DNA of 64,000 nucleotides, taken from assembly GCA_034189955.1 (NCBI GenBank), contig JAXHTU010000002.1, positions 2,087-66,086 of the forward strand, in the 5' to 3' direction. The translations under genes were made by a program, and so were the position numbers. The notes below the pieces were generated by a model that saw only the letters and a list, made by a program, of their open reading frames with translations, ran no database searches and was not told the origin of the DNA. Position 1 is the stretch's first letter, and every line of letters begins with the position of its first letter. Positions 36,797 through 48,460 of the stretch are shown one piece after another. Origin of the DNA: Pseudomonadota bacterium (GTDB lineage Bacteria; Pseudomonadota; Alphaproteobacteria; Caulobacterales; Caulobacteraceae).

Positions 36797-38752
<1,956 letters not shown>

Positions 38753-38772: not shown

Positions 38773-40128
38773 CTAGAAACCGTACTTAGCAAAAATCTGC
38801 AGTCGGGTCATTTCGCCCGAGACGCCGGACTCCAGTTCCCGCTCGCCGACCATCAGCTCGGCGCCGAGATCCAGCGCCGGCAGCGGCGTCCAGATCAGGT
38901 TGCCGCGCAGGCTCTGCGCCGACTTGTTGGTCGCAGCGCCGATCAGCGTCAGGTCGTTGTCGACGTTCTGGGCCGACCAGGTCAGATTCGAGCGCCACTG
39001 CGGCGTCCAGACATGGCGGTAGCTGACCAGGCCGGCGACCACGCCGATCGCCTCCAGCTCGCCCGTGGCGTCCAGCACCGCGTCATTGGCGAAGTTGAGG
39101 CCGATGTAGCGGCCGATGCCCTCGCCGCCCGACAGCATCAGGCGCAGGTCGTCGCGTTCGCCGACCTTGATCTTGGCCGCCGCCGACAGGCCCCAGCCGA
39201 GGGTGGAGGAGTCGATCGCGCCGGCGCCGGTGGTCTCATAGGACAGCTGGCGCATGATGCCGGCCAGCGAGGCCTCGCCCCACGTCCCGGTCACGGTGTA
39301 GCGGGCGGTCAGATCGGGCAGGCTGCTGTCGTCGGCGATGATCCGGGTGGTCCCGAGGTAGGGCGTCACCGTGGTCTCCGGATTCTCGATCGAGATGGAG
39401 AACGGGCCGTTCGTATACCGGACCTGGACCTGGCGGGCGAAGACCGTGCCCTCGCTGGAGCCGATATAGTCGGCCGTATCCGGCAGCACGGACAGGTTCT
39501 GGAAATTGGTCCACTCCTGACCGAACAGCCAGTTGTCCACGGTGACGAAGGCGCGGCGCAGCGACAGGTTCGACGGACTGGTCGTGCGCTGGTCCCCGGC
39601 GCCGGGCAGGACCTGGAAGTCCATCTCCAGCCGGGTCCCGACCTTGCGTCCGCCCAGCAGCCCCTCGGTCGTCAGCCAGAAGCGGGTCTGGCGGGCGTTG
39701 AAGTCGGTCGCCGTGTTCTCGTCCGCCCCACCGACCGGAATCGACCCCGGCAGATAGAAGTCACGCAGCAGATCGCCGTTGGCCGGGTCGCCGCCGTCAT
39801 AGCTGGAAGCCATGAAGTCGGCCTTCACATAGCCGCCGAACTTCACGAGGTTGTTGCCCATGCGAAAGCCGTCGGCCGGGGCGGCGGGCGGCGCCGGCGG
39901 GGCTGCCGCCGCCCGCTGCTCGATACGGATGATATCCTGGGCCACCGCCTGTTGCTGGGCCGTCTGCTGGTCGCGCGAGGCGACGACCTCGCTCTTCAGC
40001 GCCGCCAGCTGGGCCTCCAGCAGGGCGATACGCGCCTCGAGCGCGGCCGTGTCCTGGGCCGCGGCCATGCCGGGCGCGGCCAGCAGGGCGACGGCGGCGG
40101 CGCCGCTCATCAGGGTCATTCTGATCAT
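38773..40128 (-). CDS. dcaP: DcaP-family outer-membrane porin with an N-terminal coiled coil
   Basis: Signal peptide, [16 protein letters not shown] coil, [22 protein letters not shown], terminal KYGF; 20 bp from the acs start. Confidence 0.8.
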
Positions 40129-40214
40129 GGTGTCCTCCCGGGTCGTCTGATGCGATCCTCCGAAGCCACTCTCCCGGACCTTGGCCCTTTGGGACCATTA
40201 GCCAATGGTCTACT

Positions 40215-40229
40215 TTCGACCAAAGTCGA
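40215..40229. promoter_or_regulatory. Candidate CrbR-type response-regulator site upstream of dcaP-acs
   Basis: TTCGACCAAAGTCGA (TCGAC-N4-GTCGA); its first 14 bp recur exactly, inverted, at 46206-46219. Confidence 0.65.
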
Positions 40230-40296
40230 GGGGTGGCACAATGGCGCGTCGCCCGGCTCGCGCCGGATCGACGGACGTCAGGGAGGGAAGCGCCGA

Positions 40297-40914
40297 ATGG
40301 ATCGCATCATCGTCGCTGATGATCATCCGCTGTTCCGGGCGGCCCTGGGCTCCGCCCTGGCCCGGGCGGCGCCCGGCGCCGTGATCGAGGAGACGCCCAG
40401 CCTCGCCGGTGCGCGCGAGGCCCTCGCCCGCGGACCCGTCGATCTGCTGCTGCTGGACCTGCGACTGTCCGACAGCGAGGGCTTCGCCGGGCTCGCCGGG
40501 GTCCGCAGCGACTATCCGACCGTCCCCGTGGTGGTGGTGTCGGCCAGCGAGGACGCGGCGACCGTCGCCCGCGCCATGGCCTTCGGCGCCGCCGGCTTCA
40601 TCCCCAAATCCGCCACCCTGGCCGAGATGATCGAGGCGCTGGAAGCGATCCAGGCCGGCGACAGCTGGGCCCCGGTCGCCGCCGACGCCGCGCAGGCCGA
40701 ACTGATGGACGCGCGCATCGCCAGCCTGACGCCGTCGCAGCTGCGCATTCTGATCGGCCTGCAGGAGGGGCGGCTGAACAAGCAGATCGCCTTCGACCTC
40801 GGGGTCACCGAGGCGACGATCAAGGCGCACCTGACCGGCGTCTTCCGCAAGCTGGGGGTCCAGAACCGCACCCAGGCGGTGATCGCCGCCCGCGCCCTGT
40901 CGGTCGGGGCCTGA
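40297..40914 (+). CDS. LuxR/NarL-family response regulator, CrbR/ErdR-like
   Basis: IIVADDHPLFR, LLLLDLRL, GFIPKS, LTPSQLRIL..NKQIAFDLGVTEATIKAHL. Confidence 0.9.
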   Translation: MDRIIVADDHPLFRAALGSALARAAPGAVIEETPSLAGAREALARGPVDLLLLDLRLSDSEGFAGLAGVRSDYPTVPVVVVSASEDAATVARAMAFGAAGFIPKSATLAEMIEALEAIQAGDSWAPVAADAAQAELMDARIASLTPSQLRILIGLQEGRLNKQIAFDLGVTEATIKAHLTGVFRKLGVQNRTQAVIAARALSVGA

Positions 40915-40929
40915 CCGGGCGGGCCGGGC

Positions 40930-43900
40930 TCAGCCGACCCCGGCGCGACGACGGGCGGACAGGAAAGCCTTCAGCGCCGCCGGTTTGACCGGCTTCGACA
41001 TCAAGGCGGCCCCGGCCGCCTCGGCCCGGCCGGGCACGGTCTCGTCGGCGTCGGCGGTGATCAGGGCGATGTGCCTGAGCCCCCGGGCGCGCAGGTCGGC
41101 GATGAGCGACAGGCCGTCGCATCCGTCGCCCAGATGCAGGTCGATGAGGGCCGCGTCGAACGGCCCCGCCAGGGCCAGCGCGGTCGCCGCGTCCGGCGCC
41201 GTGACCGGCGTCATCCCCCAGCGGCCCAGCAGGGCGGTCAGCGCCTCGAGGATGGCCGGTTCATTGTCGACGCACAGCACCCGCAGTCCGGCCAGGCCGG
41301 TTCCGGGCGGAGCCGCGGTCGCGCCGGCGTCCGCCGATGGCCGCGTCGCCTCGGCCCGGGGCGCCGAGACCGCGAAGCGGGTGCCGCGCCCGGGCGTCGA
41401 CCGCAGTTCCAGCGGATGCACCAGCAGTTCGGCGACCCGCCGGACGATGGCCAGGCCCAGTCCCGCCCCCGGCTCGTCGCCGCCCCGCGCCGGCAGACGG
41501 GTGAATTCGGTGAAGATCAGGTCCTGCTGTTCCGGCGCCACGCCCCGGCCGGTGTCGTGGATCTCGAACCGCACCATGGCGCCCGCCCGCCGCGCGCCGA
41601 CCAGCACCCCGCCGCGATCCGTATAGCGGATGGCGTTGCCGATCAGATTCTGCAGCAGCGAGCGCAGCAGGTCCCGGTCCGACGCCGCCCAGAAGCGCGA
41701 CGGGACGATGGTCAGGGTCAGGCCCTTGGCCTCGGCCATCGGCGTGAACTCGCGGCGCAGGTCGCTGAACAGGGCCTCGACCGACAGCGGCGCGACCGTC
41801 GGCCGAATCCCGCCGGCCTCCAGCCGCGACAGGTTCAACAGCGCCTTCAGCAGGCCATGGGCGCTCTCGATCGACCGGTCGGCGTTCTCCGCCAGCAGCC
41901 GCGCGCCCGGCGACCTCGACCCGTCCGGCTCGTCCTTCAGCGCGGCGATGAACAACCGCGCGGCGTGCAGCGGCTGCAGCAGGTCGTGGCTGGCCGCGGC
42001 GAGAAAGCGGGTCTTGGAGGCGACCGCGGCTTCGGCCGTCTGGCGGGCCTCGTTCAGCCGCTCGGTGCGATCGGCGACCCGCGCCTCCAGCAGCTCATTG
42101 GCCTCTTCCAGCGCCTGGGCCGCGCGGCGCAGTTCGGTGATGTCGGTATAGGAGGTGACGTATCCGCCGCCCGACATCGGCGCCCCGGTCGACTTGAGGA
42201 TGCGGCCATTGGGCTGGGCCCGCTCGTGGTCGTGGGGCTCGCGGCGACGCAACGCCTCCAGCCGGCGTTCGACCCAGGCTTCCATGTCCCCGATCTCGAC
42301 CTCTCCGCGCTCGGCGTTGAGGCGGTAGACGGCGGCGACCGGCTGGCCGACATGGACGAACCCCGCCGGCAGGTCGAACAGATCGACGTAGCGTGCATTC
42401 CAGGCGATCAGCCGCAGGTCCCCGTCGACCACGCTGACCCCCTGGTCGATGTTGTCGAGCGTGGCCTGCAGCAGTTCGCGATTGAACTGCACCGCCTGCG
42501 AGGCCTCGTCGAGCATGCGCACGACATCCTCGGGCGCGCGCCCGCCGCCGGCGAGGGCGGCCGAGATGACGCGCCGCGCCGAGGACGCCCCGACCGCCCC
42601 TGCCAGCATGCGTTCGGCCGCCCGCGCCAGGCCGGCGTCGGCCGGATCGCTGTCGCGAAAGACCTGGTTGGTCTCCCGGGCGAAGGCGTCGAACGCCCGG
42701 TTAGCCCCCGCGTCGCCCACGAACCGCGCCACCAAGGTGCGCAGATCGCCGATCGAGGCTCCCGAGGGGGCCGTGCTCTGCTCGCGCCAGTCGGGGCTGA
42801 TGCGATCGACGAAGGCGCGGGCCTGGACCCGGTCGATCAGCCGCGGGCGGACAGCGCGTGAGATCAGCACGAAGGTCAGGGTATTGGCGGCGAGGCTGAG
42901 CAGGACGCCGAGCGGCAGCGGATCGGCCAGGCCGAATGGCGTGATCAGCCCGACGCCGAGCGCGGCTCCCATCTGCGGCAGGGCGAGGAAGACCAGCCAG
43001 ATGACCGAGCCGACCACCAGGCCGGCGAAGGCGCCGGTGGCGTGTCCCCCCCGCCAGAGCACCGCCCCGAACAGCGCCGGCGCCAGCTGCGCCAGGGCGG
43101 CGAACGACGTCAGGCCGATCGAGGCGAGGCCGGACGACCGGTCGATGGCCTGGAAATACAGCCAGGCCAGAAACAGGATGACGCAGATGACGATGCGGCG
43201 GACCTGCAGGATGGCGTCCGCCATGTCCGAGGCGTCTTCGCGCGCCCGCCACCGGTCGCGCGCCAGCAGCGGCAGGATCAGGCTGTTGGAGGCCATGGCC
43301 GACAGCGCCACCGTCTCGACGATGACCATGGCCGTCGCCGCCGAGAACCCGCCGACGAAGACGACCGCCGTCAGGACCCGAGCGCCCTGCTGGAACGGAA
43401 GGCCCAGCACGAACAGATCCGGATCGCCGACATCGACGAACAGCCGTCCCGCCGCGACGATCGGCAGGACGGCGAGGCTGGTCAGCAGCAGATAGGTCGG
43501 AAAGGCCCAGCGGGCCTTGCGGATGTCGGCCGGTCCGACCGCTTCGACGAACCCCACATGGAACTGTCGCGGCAGGCAGAAGATGGCCAGGGTCGACAGC
43601 AGGGTGATGGCGATGAACCGGGCGTCGACCACCGGCGGGGCGGCGAGGTCTCCCAGCGCCGTCGCCACCGCCGCCCGGTCCGGCAGGCCCAGCAGCAGGG
43701 CCCCGGCGAAGACCGCGACGGCGATCAGGGCCGCCAGCTTGATCACCGACTCCAGCGCCACGGCCCGGATCAGACCGCGATTGTGCTCCGTCAGGTCCGG
43801 CCGGCGCGCCCCGAACAGGATGGTGAAGCCGGCCAGCACCACGGCCATCACCGCCACCGTCAGCCCCTCCGATCCGGCCACCGGGGTGCCGGCCGTCACC

Positions 43901-44340
43901 AGCTGCCAGGCCATCGACAGGGAAGTCAGCTGCAGGGCGATGTAGGGCAGGGAGCCGACGATGGCGACGCAGGCGACCAGGGCCCCCAACGACGGGCTCT
44001 TGCCGTAGCGCGAGGAGATGAAGTCGGCGATCGAGCCGATGTTCTCGCGCTTGGCGGCGGCGGCGATCCGTCGCCACAGCGGGAACAGGACGACCAGGCC
44101 GACGACCGGCCCCAGATAGATCGGCAGATAGTCCCAGCCGTCGCGCGCCGCCGTTCCGACCGCGCCGTAATAGGTCCAGGAGGTGCAGTAGATGGCCAGG
44201 CTCAGGGCATAGGCCCAGGGCCCCAGCCGGCGACCGTGCGGTCGATGGCCCACGCGCTCGCTGCGCCAGGCGACGGCGAACAGCAACGCCATATAGGCGG
44301 CGACCAGCGTCAGGATCAGCGGCGCGAACATATCCCTCAT
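40930..44340 (-). CDS. Hybrid sensor kinase with SLC5 (Na+/solute symporter)-like, STAC, PAS, HK and REC domains; CrbS/MxtR-like
   Basis: YALSLAIYCTSWTYYGAVG, SIADFISSRYGKS, FCLPRQFHV; LDNIDQGVSV; FLAAASHDLLQPL; NLIGNAIRYT, GAGLGLAI; C-terminal REC. Confidence 0.9.
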   Translation of the reverse strand: MRDMFAPLILTLVAAYMALLFAVAWRSERVGHRPHGRRLGPWAYALSLAIYCTSWTYYGAVGTAARDGWDYLPIYLGPVVGLVVLFPLWRRIAAAAKRENIGSIADFISSRYGKSPSLGALVACVAIVGSLPYIALQLTSLSMAWQLVTAGTPVAGSEGLTVAVMAVVLAGFTILFGARRPDLTEHNRGLIRAVALESVIKLAALIAVAVFAGALLLGLPDRAAVATALGDLAAPPVVDARFIAITLLSTLAIFCLPRQFHVGFVEAVGPADIRKARWAFPTYLLLTSLAVLPIVAAGRLFVDVGDPDLFVLGLPFQQGARVLTAVVFVGGFSAATAMVIVETVALSAMASNSLILPLLARDRWRAREDASDMADAILQVRRIVICVILFLAWLYFQAIDRSSGLASIGLTSFAALAQLAPALFGAVLWRGGHATGAFAGLVVGSVIWLVFLALPQMGAALGVGLITPFGLADPLPLGVLLSLAANTLTFVLISRAVRPRLIDRVQARAFVDRISPDWREQSTAPSGASIGDLRTLVARFVGDAGANRAFDAFARETNQVFRDSDPADAGLARAAERMLAGAVGASSARRVISAALAGGGRAPEDVVRMLDEASQAVQFNRELLQATLDNIDQGVSVVDGDLRLIAWNARYVDLFDLPAGFVHVGQPVAAVYRLNAERGEVEIGDMEAWVERRLEALRRREPHDHERAQPNGRILKSTGAPMSGGGYVTSYTDITELRRAAQALEEANELLEARVADRTERLNEARQTAEAAVASKTRFLAAASHDLLQPLHAARLFIAALKDEPDGSRSPGARLLAENADRSIESAHGLLKALLNLSRLEAGGIRPTVAPLSVEALFSDLRREFTPMAEAKGLTLTIVPSRFWAASDRDLLRSLLQNLIGNAIRYTDRGGVLVGARRAGAMVRFEIHDTGRGVAPEQQDLIFTEFTRLPARGGDEPGAGLGLAIVRRVAELLVHPLELRSTPGRGTRFAVSAPRAEATRPSADAGATAAPPGTGLAGLRVLCVDNEPAILEALTALLGRWGMTPVTAPDAATALALAGPFDAALIDLHLGDGCDGLSLIADLRARGLRHIALITADADETVPGRAEAAGAALMSKPVKPAALKAFLSARRRAGVG

Positions 44341-44368
44341 CTAGATCGCTCCGGCGCGACTCCCGCAA

Positions 44369-44404
44369 GAAAAAGGCGGGCCGACCGTTTCCGGTCGCCC
44401 CGCC
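44369..44404 (-). terminator. Intrinsic terminator of the MFS gene
   Basis: A-run followed by a GGCGGG..CGACC-N5-GGTCG..CCCGCC stem. Confidence 0.55.
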
Positions 44405-44431
44405 CCTCCCTCTCTCGACCCGAAAGCAGGA

Positions 44432-46105
44432 TCAGGCGTTGAGGTCGACGTCCTTGCCTTCCTTGACCAGCAGGAAGCCCAGCACCACGGTCGCGAGCGC
44501 CACCACGATGGGATACCAGAGGCCGTAGAAGATGTTGCCGGTGGCCGCGACCATGGCGAAGGCCGTGGTCGGCAGGAAGCCGCCGAACCAGCCGTTGCCG
44601 ATATGATAGGGCAGCGACATCGAGGTGTAGCGGATATTGGTCGGGAACATCTCGACCAGGGCGGCGGCGATCGGGCCGTAGACCATGGTCACATAGAAGC
44701 CGAGGATGAACAGGATCAGCACCACGACCGGCTTGTTGACCTGGTCGCTGTCCGCCGACGTGGGATAGCCCGCGGTCGCCAGGGCCGTTCCCAGTCCGGC
44801 TTCCCAGGTCTTGCGTTCCGCCGCGAACTCGGCGGCTGGCATGGCCTCGCCGCGGAAGCTGGGGATCACCACGCTGTCGCCGATGCGGACCTCGGCCACC
44901 GTCCCGGCCGGAGCCGCGACATTGGTGTAGTTGATGCCCGCCTTGGCGACATAGGATTTGGCCAGGTCGCACGACTGGTTGAACACCGTCTTGCCCACCG
45001 GGTCGAACTGCAGGTTACAGTCGGCCGGATCGGCGTAGATGGTCACCGGCTGCGATGCCGTGGCCTCGGCCAGCGCCGGGTTGGCCGCGTGGGTCAGGGC
45101 CTGGAACAGCGGGAAATAGGTCAGGGCCGCGATCAGGCAGCCGGCGAGAATGATCGGCTTGCGGCCCACCTTGTCCGACAGCCAGCCCCAGAAGACGAAG
45201 AAGGGCGACGCCAGCAGCAGGGCGATGGCCAGCAGGATGTAGACCAGCGTCGCATCGACCTTCATCACCCGCTCGAGGAAGAACAGGGCGTAGAACTGGC
45301 CGGTGTACCAGATCACCGCCTGACCGGCGGTCAGACCCACGAGGGCGATGATCACCAGCTTCAGGTTCGGCCATTTCAGGAACGAGTCCTTGAGCGGCGT
45401 CGGCGATCCCTTGCCCTCGGCCTTCATCTGTTTGAACGACGGGCTCTCGGCCAGCTTCAGGCGGATCCACAGCGACACGCCCAGCAGCAGGATCGAAACC
45501 AGGAACGGAATTCTCCAGCCCCATTCGACGAAGTTTTCCTCGCCGACGGCGAGGCGGACGCCGAGAATCACCAGCAGGCTGAGCACCAGACCGGCCGTGG
45601 CCGTGATCTGGATGAAGGAGGTGTAGAAGCCGCGCTTCCCCTTCGGCGCATGCTCGGCGACGTAGGTGGCCGCGCCGCCATATTCACCCCCCAGGGCCAG
45701 GCCCTGGATCAGGCGCATGGCGACGAGGATGATCGGCGCCGCCAGCCCGATGGCCGCATAGGAAGGCAGCAGACCGACCACGAAGGTCGAAATGCCCATC
45801 AGCATCATCGTGACCAGGAAGGTGTTCTTGCGCCCCCACAGGTCGCCCAGCCGGCCGAAGAAGACCGCGCCGAACGGGCGCACCGCGAAGCCGGCGGCGA
45901 AGGCCATCAGGGCGAAAATATAGCCCGTCGTCTCGTTCACGCCGGAGAAGAACTGGGCCGTGATGATCGCCGCGAGGGAACCGTACAGGTAGAAATCGTA
46001 CCACTCGATCACCGTTCCGACGGAGGATGCGAGGATGACGAGCCTGTCGTTCTTGTCGATCGTGTGGTCCGGTTCGACCGGGGCGCCGATGGCGCTGTCT
46101 GTCAT
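44432..46105 (-). CDS. MHS-family MFS transporter (metabolite:H+ symporter), probably for a monocarboxylate
   Basis: SSVGTVIEWYDFYLYG, FGRLGDLWGRK, QGLALGGEYGGAATYVAE, WGWRIPF, LSDKVGRK. Confidence 0.9.
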   Translation of the reverse strand: MTDSAIGAPVEPDHTIDKNDRLVILASSVGTVIEWYDFYLYGSLAAIITAQFFSGVNETTGYIFALMAFAAGFAVRPFGAVFFGRLGDLWGRKNTFLVTMMLMGISTFVVGLLPSYAAIGLAAPIILVAMRLIQGLALGGEYGGAATYVAEHAPKGKRGFYTSFIQITATAGLVLSLLVILGVRLAVGEENFVEWGWRIPFLVSILLLGVSLWIRLKLAESPSFKQMKAEGKGSPTPLKDSFLKWPNLKLVIIALVGLTAGQAVIWYTGQFYALFFLERVMKVDATLVYILLAIALLLASPFFVFWGWLSDKVGRKPIILAGCLIAALTYFPLFQALTHAANPALAEATASQPVTIYADPADCNLQFDPVGKTVFNQSCDLAKSYVAKAGINYTNVAAPAGTVAEVRIGDSVVIPSFRGEAMPAAEFAAERKTWEAGLGTALATAGYPTSADSDQVNKPVVVLILFILGFYVTMVYGPIAAALVEMFPTNIRYTSMSLPYHIGNGWFGGFLPTTAFAMVAATGNIFYGLWYPIVVALATVVLGFLLVKEGKDVDLNA

Positions 46106-46205
46106 TGTAAGCCTCCCAAGCTCGCCGTTTTCGGCTGTTTTGCGCATGCGTCGCCCGTGCGACGATCGCCGCGACTGTGTCAGCACGCCGCAGGCTTGGA
46201 GAGAG

Positions 46206-46219
46206 CGACTTTGGTCGAA
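46206..46219. promoter_or_regulatory. Second copy of the candidate CrbR-type site, upstream of the MFS gene
   Basis: CGACTTTGGTCGAA is the reverse complement of TTCGACCAAAGTCG. Confidence 0.65.
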
Positions 46220-46372: not shown

Positions 46373-48460
46373 ATGACGAAGACCATCTGGCTGGCGACCG
46401 CCGCCGTCTCGCTGCTGGCCGTTCCGGTCATGGCGCAGACCTCTCCGAACCCCGACGGCGTCGCGCAGGTCCCGGTCCCGACCGGGCCCGCCCGGTCGGC
46501 GCCGGCCGTCGATGCGGCCCAGCAGGGCGTGCTCGTGTTCGAGCCGGCCTTCTTCGCCGACTCCCGCCCCGACACCGCGCTGGACATGATCTCCCGCCTG
46601 CCCGGCTTCGGCCTCGACACCGGCGACACCGGCTCGCGGGGCTTCGCCGGCGCGGCCGGCAATGTGCTGATCGACGGCGACCGGCCCTCGTCCAAGAGCG
46701 ACGGCCTCGACCAGGTGCTGCGCCGCATCTCCGCCGCCAGCGTCGAGCGCATCGAGTTGATCCGCGGCGGCGCCCCGGGCATCGACATGCAGGGCCGCTC
46801 GGTCATCGCCAACGTCGTCCTGCGCCGCACCGTCACCGTCGAGCGGGTGCTGGAATTCAACAGCTACCTCTATCCCGACGGCTACGTCGGTCCGATCCTC
46901 GCCGGCCAGTACTCACGGCGCGAGGGCGACACTTCCATCGAGGGTTCGATCAGCGCCACGACCGATCGCACCGACGGCACCGGCGACGGCTACCGCCGCC
47001 GTTACGACCCGTCCGGGGCGCTGATCCAGGACGCCGACCTGATCCTGTGGGACCGGTTCCGCAACGTCCGCGCCACCGGCGCCGTCCAGCGCCCCTTCGC
47101 CGGCGGCCGCCTGCGCGCCAACGGGTTGCTCAGCTGGTTCGGCCGCGAGAACACCCAGGACCTGCTGATCCGCTCGGGCCCCGGGATCGACAGCTTCAAC
47201 GACGAGGAATCGGACTCCCTCGAGGGCGAACTGGGTCTGAACTGGACCCGCGACCTGTCGGCCCGCACCGGCATCGAACTGGTCGGCCTGCAGCGCTGGT
47301 CCTCCGAGGACTATACCGGCGTGTCCGAAAGCGGCGGCGACAGCTCGACCTTCACCTCGGACGCCACGGCCGGCGAAACCATCGGCCGCGCCGTGCTGCG
47401 CTTCCGTCCCAACGACCGGTGGGCCTTCGAAACCGGCGCCGAGGTCGCTTACAATGTTCTCGACAGCGCCACCGCCTATGAGGAGAACGGCGTCGCCATC
47501 CCCCTGCCCTCGGCCTCGGTCAAGGTCGAGGAACTGCGCGGCGAGGCCTTCGGCCAGGCCACCTGGCGGCCCGACGCCAAACTGACCCTCGAGGCCGGCC
47601 TGCGCGTCGAGGTCTCGGAAATCAGCCAGTCCGGCGACAGCGACCAGAGCAAATCCTTCGTCTATCCCAAACCCCGTCTGCAACTGACCTGGACGCCCTG
47701 GTCCGGCCACCAGTTCCGTTTCCGTGCGGAGCGGGAGGTGGGGCAGCTGGACTTCGGCGATTTCGTCGCCTCGGCCGATATCGACATCGGCCAGGTCGAG
47801 GGCGGCAATCCCGAGCTCGAACCCGAGAAAACCACCCTGCTGGAAGCCGTCTACGAGCGGCGCTTCTGGGGCGAGGGCGTGCTGGAGCTGTCGGCCCAGC
47901 ACGGCGAGGTCGAGGACGTCGTCGACCTGATCCCCCTGACCGGCGGCTTCGACGGCGTCGGCAATATCGGCGACGGTTCGTTCGACCAGTACCAGGTCCG
48001 CCTGACCCTGCCGATGGACCGGCTGGGCCTCCCCAACGCCCGGCTGCAGACCCGCGCCAGCTGGGTCAGCACCGAGGTGACCGACCCCCTGACCGGCGAG
48101 ACCCGCCGCTTCCAGGGCAACCAGGCCTTCGGCTGCGGCGTCAATTTCAACCACGACCTGCAGGGCGGGAAATATTCGTACGGCTTCGACCACGGCTGCA
48201 ATGTCGACAAGGGCCGGGCCTTCCGCGTCCGGGAGGTCCGCGCCTTCTACAATGAGGCCTTCGTCACCCTGTACGGCCAGTGGAAGCCCACGTCCGACAC
48301 CACCCTCCGGGTCGACCTCGGCAACGCCACCGATCGGGAGCAGGGCTACGACCGCGCCATCTACGCCGGCCCGCGCGACGTCTCCCCGCTGGCCTACCGC
48401 GAGGTGCGCCGCACGAAGATGAGCCCGTGGCTGTTCGTGCAGCTGCGCAAGAATTTCTGA
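46373..48460 (+). CDS. TonB-dependent outer-membrane receptor
   Basis: Signal peptide; plug TALDMISRLPGF..NVLIDG..VERIELIRGG; GNPELEPE; terminal LRKNF. Confidence 0.88.
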   Translation: MTKTIWLATAAVSLLAVPVMAQTSPNPDGVAQVPVPTGPARSAPAVDAAQQGVLVFEPAFFADSRPDTALDMISRLPGFGLDTGDTGSRGFAGAAGNVLIDGDRPSSKSDGLDQVLRRISAASVERIELIRGGAPGIDMQGRSVIANVVLRRTVTVERVLEFNSYLYPDGYVGPILAGQYSRREGDTSIEGSISATTDRTDGTGDGYRRRYDPSGALIQDADLILWDRFRNVRATGAVQRPFAGGRLRANGLLSWFGRENTQDLLIRSGPGIDSFNDEESDSLEGELGLNWTRDLSARTGIELVGLQRWSSEDYTGVSESGGDSSTFTSDATAGETIGRAVLRFRPNDRWAFETGAEVAYNVLDSATAYEENGVAIPLPSASVKVEELRGEAFGQATWRPDAKLTLEAGLRVEVSEISQSGDSDQSKSFVYPKPRLQLTWTPWSGHQFRFRAEREVGQLDFGDFVASADIDIGQVEGGNPELEPEKTTLLEAVYERRFWGEGVLELSAQHGEVEDVVDLIPLTGGFDGVGNIGDGSFDQYQVRLTLPMDRLGLPNARLQTRASWVSTEVTDPLTGETRRFQGNQAFGCGVNFNHDLQGGKYSYGFDHGCNVDKGRAFRVREVRAFYNEAFVTLYGQWKPTSDTTLRVDLGNATDREQGYDRAIYAGPRDVSPLAYREVRRTKMSPWLFVQLRKNF

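Follow-up and report, generated by a model that had tools for sequence, protein, structure and literature searches.

A probable self-contained CrbS/CrbR-type acetate switch in Brevundimonas with a candidate porin and MFS uptake route

Introduction

The two-component system CrbS/CrbR (MxtR/ErdR) and its operator, the ACTU element, are known from Pseudomonas and Vibrio (PMC5715377; PMC8402216; bioRxiv 10.64898/2026.09.07.749794). ACTU is an imperfect inverted repeat, GACNNNNGTC, which was defined by Sepulveda and Lupas and is needed for the CrbR-dependent activation of acs and actP; the requirement for acs activation was described in P. fluorescens, and the listed instances include TACGACTAAAGTCTAAA, a P. 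fluorescens site, and TACTACCATCGTCGAAT (PMC5715377). Binding of purified ErdR of P. alloputida to GACNNNNGTC was recently described on the basis of electrophoretic mobility shift assays and mutagenesis (2026 preprint, bioRxiv 10.64898/2026.09.07.749794). Here, a stretch of 64,000 nucleotides (the window) from a member of the Caulobacteraceae (assembly GCA_034189955.1, contig JAXHTU010000002.1, positions 2,087 to 66,086 of the forward strand) was analyzed, in which genes of a CrbS-like kinase and a CrbR-like regulator lie next to acs, a porin gene and the gene of a transporter of the major facilitator superfamily (MFS), and in which a 14-mer, TTCGACCAAAGTCG, precedes two operons. Coordinates are positions in the window unless a contig or locus is named.

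In the alphaproteobacterium Sinorhizobium fredii NGR234, deletion of CrbS/CrbR abolishes growth on acetate (PMC9100948), and the system is therefore not confined to Gammaproteobacteria. The sequence-only reading of the window, which had named Vibrio and Pseudomonas as the hosts of the known system, overlooked this alphaproteobacterial case. The passages of that report covered here describe no operator, porin or MFS target for S. fredii CrbS/R. A second system from the same report, RpuS/RpuR, resembles the one studied here in its SLC5/STAC hybrid kinase of similar length, its LuxR-type regulator and its control of a carboxylate transporter; RpuR differs in that its site is an imperfect direct repeat and its target is mctP (PMC9100948). 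Two further proteins serve as references for the uptake genes. DcaP of Acinetobacter baumannii (PDB 6EUS) was characterized on dicarboxylates and sulbactam. Deh4p, the haloacetate permease of Burkholderia sp. MBA4 (TC 2.A.1.6.8), is an MHS family protein of 552 amino acids with a 'unique' periplasmic loop at residues 337-454 (PMC2777183). Its transport is driven by the proton-motive force, its substrates are acetate analogues (PMC2777183; PMC3552994) and its uptake activity was tied to acetate (PMC3552994). Our literature search returned no paper on CrbS/R in Caulobacterales and none that ties DcaP-like porins or Deh4p-type MFS transporters to CrbS/R.

Results

Organization of the cluster

The locus very probably represents an acetate switch of the CrbS/CrbR (MxtR/ErdR) type that is self-contained and belongs to a Brevundimonas species. 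It is part of a genome of 3,157,950 bp (210 contigs, 69% G+C, assembly completeness 95%), and the nearest loci in public genomes, obtained in a kinase-profile search that returned 80 loci, are all from Brevundimonas. The genes dcaP and acs form a minus-strand operon with dcaP first and acs second, separated by 20 bp. The product of dcaP (38773-40128) belongs to the DcaP-like porins of the outer membrane (PF19577, 62.4 bits against a cut-off of 27) and has a signal peptide at its N-terminus; its residues 69-451 match the homologous beta-barrel of the A. baumannii protein (PDB 6EUS, E 2.1e-25). The acs gene (36797-38752) gave the single match in the genome and is thus its sole copy; the encoded acetate-CoA ligase scored above the cut-offs of both NF001208 (1060 bits) and TIGR02188 (995 bits).

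The only member of the cluster on the plus strand is the crbR/erdR-like gene (40297-40914), which diverges from dcaP, converges with crbS and codes for a NarL/LuxR-family response regulator of 205 amino acids (Pfam Response_reg and GerE). The crbS/mxtR-like gene (40930-44340, minus strand) encodes a hybrid sensor kinase of 1136 amino acids with the architecture SLC5-STAC-PAS-HisKA-HATPase-REC, assigned by Pfam and PDB 10ED. It is preceded on the same strand, with a gap of 91 bp, by the gene of an MHS-type MFS transporter of 557 amino acids (44432-46105; TIGR00883, Pfam Sugar_tr and MFS_1). These Pfam, NCBIfam and PDB matches agree with the identities that the sequence-only reading had given to the genes, namely acs, DcaP porin, LuxR regulator, SLC5-fused kinase and MHS transporter. 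An open reading frame on the minus strand (40210-40830) was also considered as the regulator gene; it has no Pfam match and was therefore rejected, the true gene being located on the plus strand.

Two ACTU-type boxes within the cluster

The 14-mer TTCGACCAAAGTCG is present at 40215-40228 on the plus strand and at 46206-46219 on the minus strand, in both cases in an intergenic region of the cluster. A genome-wide scan recovered only these two copies, even when one mismatch was permitted, and a first-order Markov model predicts 0.015 exact copies per genome and 0.0003 per window. The first copy lies 87-100 bp upstream of the dcaP ATG (40128) and 69-82 bp from the regulator start, within a divergent region of 168 bp. 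Since the regulator gene is on the plus strand and divergent from dcaP, this box is located in a shared control region, an arrangement that, like the orientation of the regulator gene itself, had gone unmentioned in the sequence-only reading. The second copy lies 101-114 bp upstream of the ATG of the MFS gene (46105), in a region of 267 bp shared with the divergent gene of a TonB-dependent receptor (46373-48460, plus strand). Both sets of distances are as the sequence-only reading had reported them. As putative operators of the ACTU type, box 1 extends from 40215 to 40230 (plus strand, TTCGACCAAAGTCGAG) and box 2 from 46204 to 46219 (minus strand, TTCGACCAAAGTCGCT), and the likeness between the two regions ends at the box edges. 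Relative to its own operon, box 2 is oriented opposite to box 1: the box reads CGACCAAAGTCG both toward crbR and toward MFS-crbS and is inverted toward dcaP.

The sequence-only reading had proposed that the motif is the binding site of the regulator, and it was compared with the published CrbR operator. The motif core, CGAC-CAAA-GTCG, includes GACNNNNGTC, the GAC-N4-GTC inverted repeat of ACTU and ErdR, so that the sites in Brevundimonas agree with the operator already described. The ACTU repeat (GACNNNNGTC or TACNNNNGTC) is present at both promoters in the form GACCAAAGTC with the extended arms TTCGAC/GTCGA. The most similar of the listed ACTU sites is TACGACTAAAGTCTAAA of P. fluorescens, and the symmetry of the Brevundimonas sites (TTCGAC/GTCGAg) exceeds that of the instances listed for Pseudomonas.

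Conservation of the boxes and of the locus

Of the 24 other genomes of the genus, 10 contain a close homolog of the regulator, as do 7 of 16 genomes that represent other families of the order. The layout acs-dcaP / crbR / crbS-MFS is kept in the regulator-positive genomes and is rearranged in more distant families; loci L039 and L041 of B. vesicularis and B. huaxiensis share the layout of the window. Within Brevundimonas, the distance from the box to the gene downstream of it is 87-107 bp for dcaP and 87-112 bp for the MFS gene. When 14 Brevundimonas loci were aligned, box 1 and the adjacent 20 nucleotides stood out as invariant between spacer sequences that have diverged, and apart from box 2 just one other element is conserved before the MFS gene. 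The TonB-dependent receptor gene was considered as a target of box 2 and rejected: it is missing from 17 of 17 related loci, while the distance between box and MFS gene is kept. As the upstream neighbor of the MFS gene varies by species and box 2 is retained before MFS orthologs whatever this neighbor is, the MFS gene and not the receptor gene is the probable target of box 2.

In other Caulobacterales, too, the box precedes acs, dcaP and the MFS gene. Rhodanobacter, Luteibacter, Pseudofulvimonas, Steroidobacter, Stenotrophobium, Alcanivorax and Sphingobium have it before acs, dcaP or the MFS gene next to crbS/crbR. It still precedes acs or dcaP in relatives where acs or dcaP does not adjoin crbR (loci L029, L030, L033, L055, L081 and L107). 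Linkage of dcaP to crbR or acs was observed in Caulobacterales, Xanthomonadales, Steroidobacter, Alcanivorax and Sphingobium, and linkage of the MFS gene to crbS or acs in many lineages. Almost every Brevundimonas genome with crbR contains exact copies of the 13-mer core of the box, most of them located in the cluster; among the crbR-negative Brevundimonas genomes a single one has a copy, which is intragenic. Searches of the relatives for the 13-mer with one mismatch were noisy and control counts were similar, so that only exact matches are informative. The motif is thus conserved across Alpha- and Gammaproteobacteria at acs, dcaP and MFS promoters; a lack of such conservation upstream of orthologs had been named in the sequence-only reading as a finding that would speak against its proposal.

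Extent of the predicted regulon

A position weight matrix (PWM) was built from 26 orthologous sites, being partly trained on the two boxes themselves. With this matrix box 1 was the top match of the genome (29.1 bits) and box 2 the second (27.9 bits), and the next match scored 18.0 bits. Together with the ACTU repeat inside the motif and its conservation at promoters, these scores of 29.1 and 27.9 bits versus at most 18 bits support the assignment of the motif as a putative binding site of the regulator. The scan of the window's own genome gave no further candidate regulon members above 18 bits; the secondary matches are mostly intragenic, and the intergenic ones have neighbors unrelated to acetate. 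GAC-N4-GTC was not found upstream of the isocitrate lyase gene (contig C26). As strong further PWM sites are lacking and isocitrate lyase has none, the regulon appears to be local and looks limited to the two promoters of the cluster, as far as can be judged from a 95% complete assembly and a matrix derived in part from these sites.

Exact boxes outside the cluster were noticed in two relatives. In the complete genome of a related Brevundimonas (locus L126, G020:C1:1778200-1783200), a third exact box, TACGACTTTGGTCGAT, is found at locus position 2479, about 75 nucleotides upstream of the gene of a CstA-type transporter, with a small gene of the YbdD/YjiX-like type coming next; no cstA homolog was detected in the window's own genome. 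In locus L127 (G022:C10:32850-37850), an exact box at locus position 2492 lies between an sdhCDA-like succinate dehydrogenase operon and a divergent pirin-like gene. This box was observed in a single species and may be a chance occurrence.

Placement of the kinase and the regulator

Residues 10-593 of the kinase align to the construct used for cryo-electron microscopy of CbrA ('CbrXA SLC5-STAC', PDB 10ED; E 5.2e-63), and about 13 hydrophobic segments are present in its N-terminus, as in an SLC5-STAC module, although Pfam SSF gave no match to this part even at E 10. PAS_7 (133 bits), HisKA (44 bits), HATPase_c (80 bits) and Response_reg (39 bits) follow in Pfam and identify the protein as a hybrid kinase. 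Its C-terminal region reached 332 bits with NF041832, the NahK/ErcS-family hybrid kinase domain, for which the cut-off is 400. Full-length comparison with the P. putida homolog gave 44% identity for the kinase, and its identity to RpuS of S. fredii (pNGR234b) is 42%. For the regulator, ErdR (NF041830) was the best NCBIfam family with 189.7 bits, followed by MadR with 94 bits.

In a maximum-likelihood tree the kinase is placed in a strongly supported clade of Caulobacterales and Sphingomonadales, the members of which are all linked to acs and dcaP. The Sinorhizobium CrbS homolog falls together with those of Bradyrhizobium and Devosia and apart from Caulobacterales. Elsewhere in the tree, RpuS forms a derived subclade within the CrbS-like family, sister to the MFS-linked kinase of Azospirillum, and the Brevundimonas kinase is outside this subclade. 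Gene orientation was also seen to split the subfamilies: RpuS-type kinase genes (L129, S. fredii pNGR234b; L132, Azospirillum thermophilum) are co-directional with the regulator gene, CrbS-type genes convergent. The setting of the kinase gene, with acs, a box that is an inverted repeat and a regulator gene in convergent orientation, supports a CrbS-like function. As the convergent genes and the inverted ACTU repeat are unlike those of RpuS/R, the system is filed as CrbS/R-type by architecture, operator and target.

Candidate route of acetate uptake

No ActP ortholog is present in the window's own genome (assembly 95% complete), in which the best match to TIGR02711 scored 77 bits against a cut-off of 1099, and SatP/YaaH (PF01184) gave no match. 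At E 1e-100, ActP was found in none of 41 Caulobacterales genomes. The MFS protein encoded in the cluster exceeds the cut-offs of both Pfam Sugar_tr and MFS_1. TIGR00883 is its best family with 361 bits, a score that is split over two stretches and stays below the cut-off of 443.45, so that the protein lacks the formal MHS signature; the split coincides with an inserted loop. This hydrophilic insert of about 120 amino acids (residues ~343-465) corresponds to a Deh4p-type architecture, as judged by length (about 555 amino acids in both proteins) and by loop position, which is 337-454 in Deh4p. Two cysteines (CNLQ...SCDL) were noticed in the insert, at the position of the Deh4p loop.

Many Alpha- and Betaproteobacteria encode full-length homologs of the MFS protein with 50-65% identity, and a search for their names returned only the generic 'MFS transporter'. 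The gene directly precedes the kinase gene in Azospirillum B510. In a Brevundimonas genome without crbS, crbR, dcaP and box (L124, G017:C22:285000-304900), acs is immediately preceded on its own strand by the gene of an MFS ortholog with 79% identity; the link between the MFS gene and acs is therefore independent of the two-component system. A second Deh4p-type paralog (53% identity), which has no box, is encoded in the window's own genome on contig C151 (16114-17724, plus strand), and this C151-type paralog is the only type in crbR-negative Brevundimonas genomes.

Judged from these linkages, the MFS protein probably serves in the uptake of a carboxylate, likely acetate, and a porin and MFS pair that replaces ActP in acetate uptake is plausible. 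The proposal of the sequence-only reading, a porin plus an MFS protein rather than ActP, fits with the absence of ActP and SatP, the conserved linkage and the Deh4p-type MFS, and it keeps the status of a prediction. The wider form of this proposal is more tentative, and we consider it possible but somewhat short of probable: the DcaP-like porin and the Deh4p-type MFS would form a dedicated, CrbR-controlled two-membrane acetate route, which would replace YjcH-ActP in Caulobacterales and recur in Sphingomonadales, Rhodospirillales, Xanthomonadales and Steroidobacter. The pairing of MFS and crbS genes in Brevundimonas and Azospirillum could reflect a transporter that works with a non-transporting SLC5 sensor domain, by analogy to the small protein CbrX and CbrA.

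Promoter elements and leaders

The near-invariant 20-nucleotide block next to box 1 in the 14 Brevundimonas loci (40195-40214, minus strand, AGTAGACCATTGGCTAATGG) is promoter-proximal to the box and reads CTAGACCAATGGCTAATGG in most species. It could represent either a core promoter, with GCTAATGG resembling a Caulobacter -10 element, or a degenerate second box, for which GAC-N4-GGC, centered 17 bp from box 1, is the candidate. Two full boxes 17 bp apart are present upstream of acs in a metagenome-assembled genome of Rhodanobacter (L086). The other conserved block upstream of the MFS gene, GCTG(A/T)CA..TC (46173-46184, minus strand), is found about 22 nucleotides downstream of box 2 and is a possible -10 element, in which case the center of box 2 would be located near -43. 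A center near -43 is the classic position for activators of the LuxR type. At the promoter of acs in P. fluorescens, ACTU extends from -52 to -36, just upstream of the core promoter (PMC5715377). A scan for the sigma-70 consensus detected no promoter-like sites, and terminator-like matches were at chance level.

The 5' leader of dcaP contains a small predicted hairpin, GGATCG-CATCAGA-CGACCC (40140-40158, minus strand), which immediately precedes the Shine-Dalgarno sequence. For the 14 Brevundimonas loci, RNAalifold predicted seven pairs, five of them with compensatory double changes, and a loop C(A/G)NCAGA; mRNA stability and translational control are possibilities for its role. In the alignment, a putative short hairpin, GCCG-AAAA-CGGC, was found by eye in the leader of the MFS gene before the Shine-Dalgarno sequence (46124-46135, minus strand). 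Its stem letters vary among Brevundimonas loci and complementarity, likewise judged by eye, is kept.

Discussion

The cluster shares with CrbS/CrbR of Pseudomonas and Vibrio the SLC5-STAC-PAS-HisKA-HATPase-REC kinase, the NarL/LuxR-type regulator and the GAC-N4-GTC imperfect palindrome before acs and a carboxylate transporter gene. In contrast to these systems, all parts are clustered and the regulon apparently consists of two local promoters, a Deh4p-type MFS is found instead of YjcH-ActP, and a DcaP-like porin gene heads the acs operon. The MFS and porin genes also differ in context from their characterized relatives, since Deh4p is linked to a dehalogenase gene and not to acs or crbS, and the porin gene is co-operonic with acs behind a CrbR-type box.

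From these comparisons we infer binding by the regulator, activation as the sign of regulation, and acetate as probable inducer and transported substrate. The SLC5-STAC hybrid kinase would sense acetate or a close short-chain carboxylate and phosphorylate the NarL/LuxR-type regulator, a dimer of which would bind both ACTU-type inverted repeats. Bound regulator is predicted to activate dcaP-acs, and with it a putative anion-selective outer-membrane porin and the sole acetyl-CoA synthetase, as well as MFS-crbS, encoding a presumed Deh4p-type proton symporter in the place of ActP and the kinase itself, which would give positive feedback. As box 1 is common to dcaP and the divergent crbR, it may in addition autoregulate crbR.

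Several observations weigh against this acetate switch. Acinetobacter DcaP prefers dicarboxylates. The clade of the kinase is a separate deep branch, the characterized MxtR of Pseudomonas and AcmS of Acinetobacter being placed in the tree's other half, and the kinase is about equally similar to the pyruvate sensor RpuS (42%) and to MxtR (44%). The ErdR score of the regulator is below the curated cut-off of 390 bits. If GCTAATGG is the -10 element of dcaP, the center of box 1 would be near -34, unusually close for an activator. The two boxes are oppositely oriented relative to their operons, which is not a problem for a near-palindrome. Finally, Deh4p was characterized on haloacetates (PMC2777183).

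In an alternative reading, the system is real and its signal and substrate are another small carboxylate (pyruvate, propionate, a haloacetate or a dicarboxylate), as in an RpuS/R-like or broader short-chain-acid switch. The dicarboxylate and haloacetate preferences of DcaP and Deh4p, the near-equal identity to RpuS and MxtR and the box before a gene of a CstA-type (pyruvate/peptide) transporter in a related Brevundimonas point in this direction, as does the control of propionate and pyruvate use by ErdR of P. alloputida (bioRxiv 10.64898/2026.09.07.749794). We nevertheless consider such a switch unlikely: the enzyme predicted to be co-regulated exceeds the equivalog cut-off for acetate-CoA ligase, is not PrpE and is present as sole copy, the operator is an inverted ACTU repeat and not the direct repeat of RpuR, crbS and crbR converge as is usual for CrbS/R loci and do not share the co-directional order of rpuS and rpuR, and the derived RpuS subclade excludes the Brevundimonas kinase.

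A narrower function of the box, in which it serves the autoregulation of CrbR only (crbR directly, crbS via the MFS promoter) or another regulator while dcaP-acs is expressed independently, would agree with the common orientation of CGACCAAAGTCG toward crbR and MFS-crbS and its inversion toward dcaP, and with the position of box 1, which is 69 bp from crbR and 87 bp from dcaP and thus nearer to the former. It is quite improbable given that the box precedes acs or dcaP in relatives where acs or dcaP does not adjoin crbR, that the invariant block extends from the box toward dcaP and not toward crbR, and that the same motif activates acs in Pseudomonas (PMC5715377). That the two 14-mers are a chance repeat or the remnant of a duplication without regulatory role is hardly credible. 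Although at least two matches were obtained in 7 of 100 shuffles of the window when up to two mismatches were permitted, 0.015 exact copies are expected per genome, both copies are intergenic and no similarity extends beyond the box. Chance is already contradicted by the conservation data, as the box is kept across genera, orders and classes at orthologous promoters.

Taken together, a CrbS/CrbR-type acetate switch remains the preferred interpretation of the locus. The system itself is already known and its concept is unchanged by our finding; the novelty is modest and consists of the predicted porin and MFS pair in the place of ActP. The experimentally defined ErdR/CrbR operator is extended, nearly unchanged, to Caulobacterales and several other orders, and a regulon of two promoters would offer a clean case for testing the action of CrbR. 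For DcaP-like porins outside Acinetobacter and for long-loop Deh4p-type MFS transporters, both of which are poorly understood, the cluster suggests a testable role in acetate uptake, in lineages that have neither ActP nor SatP.

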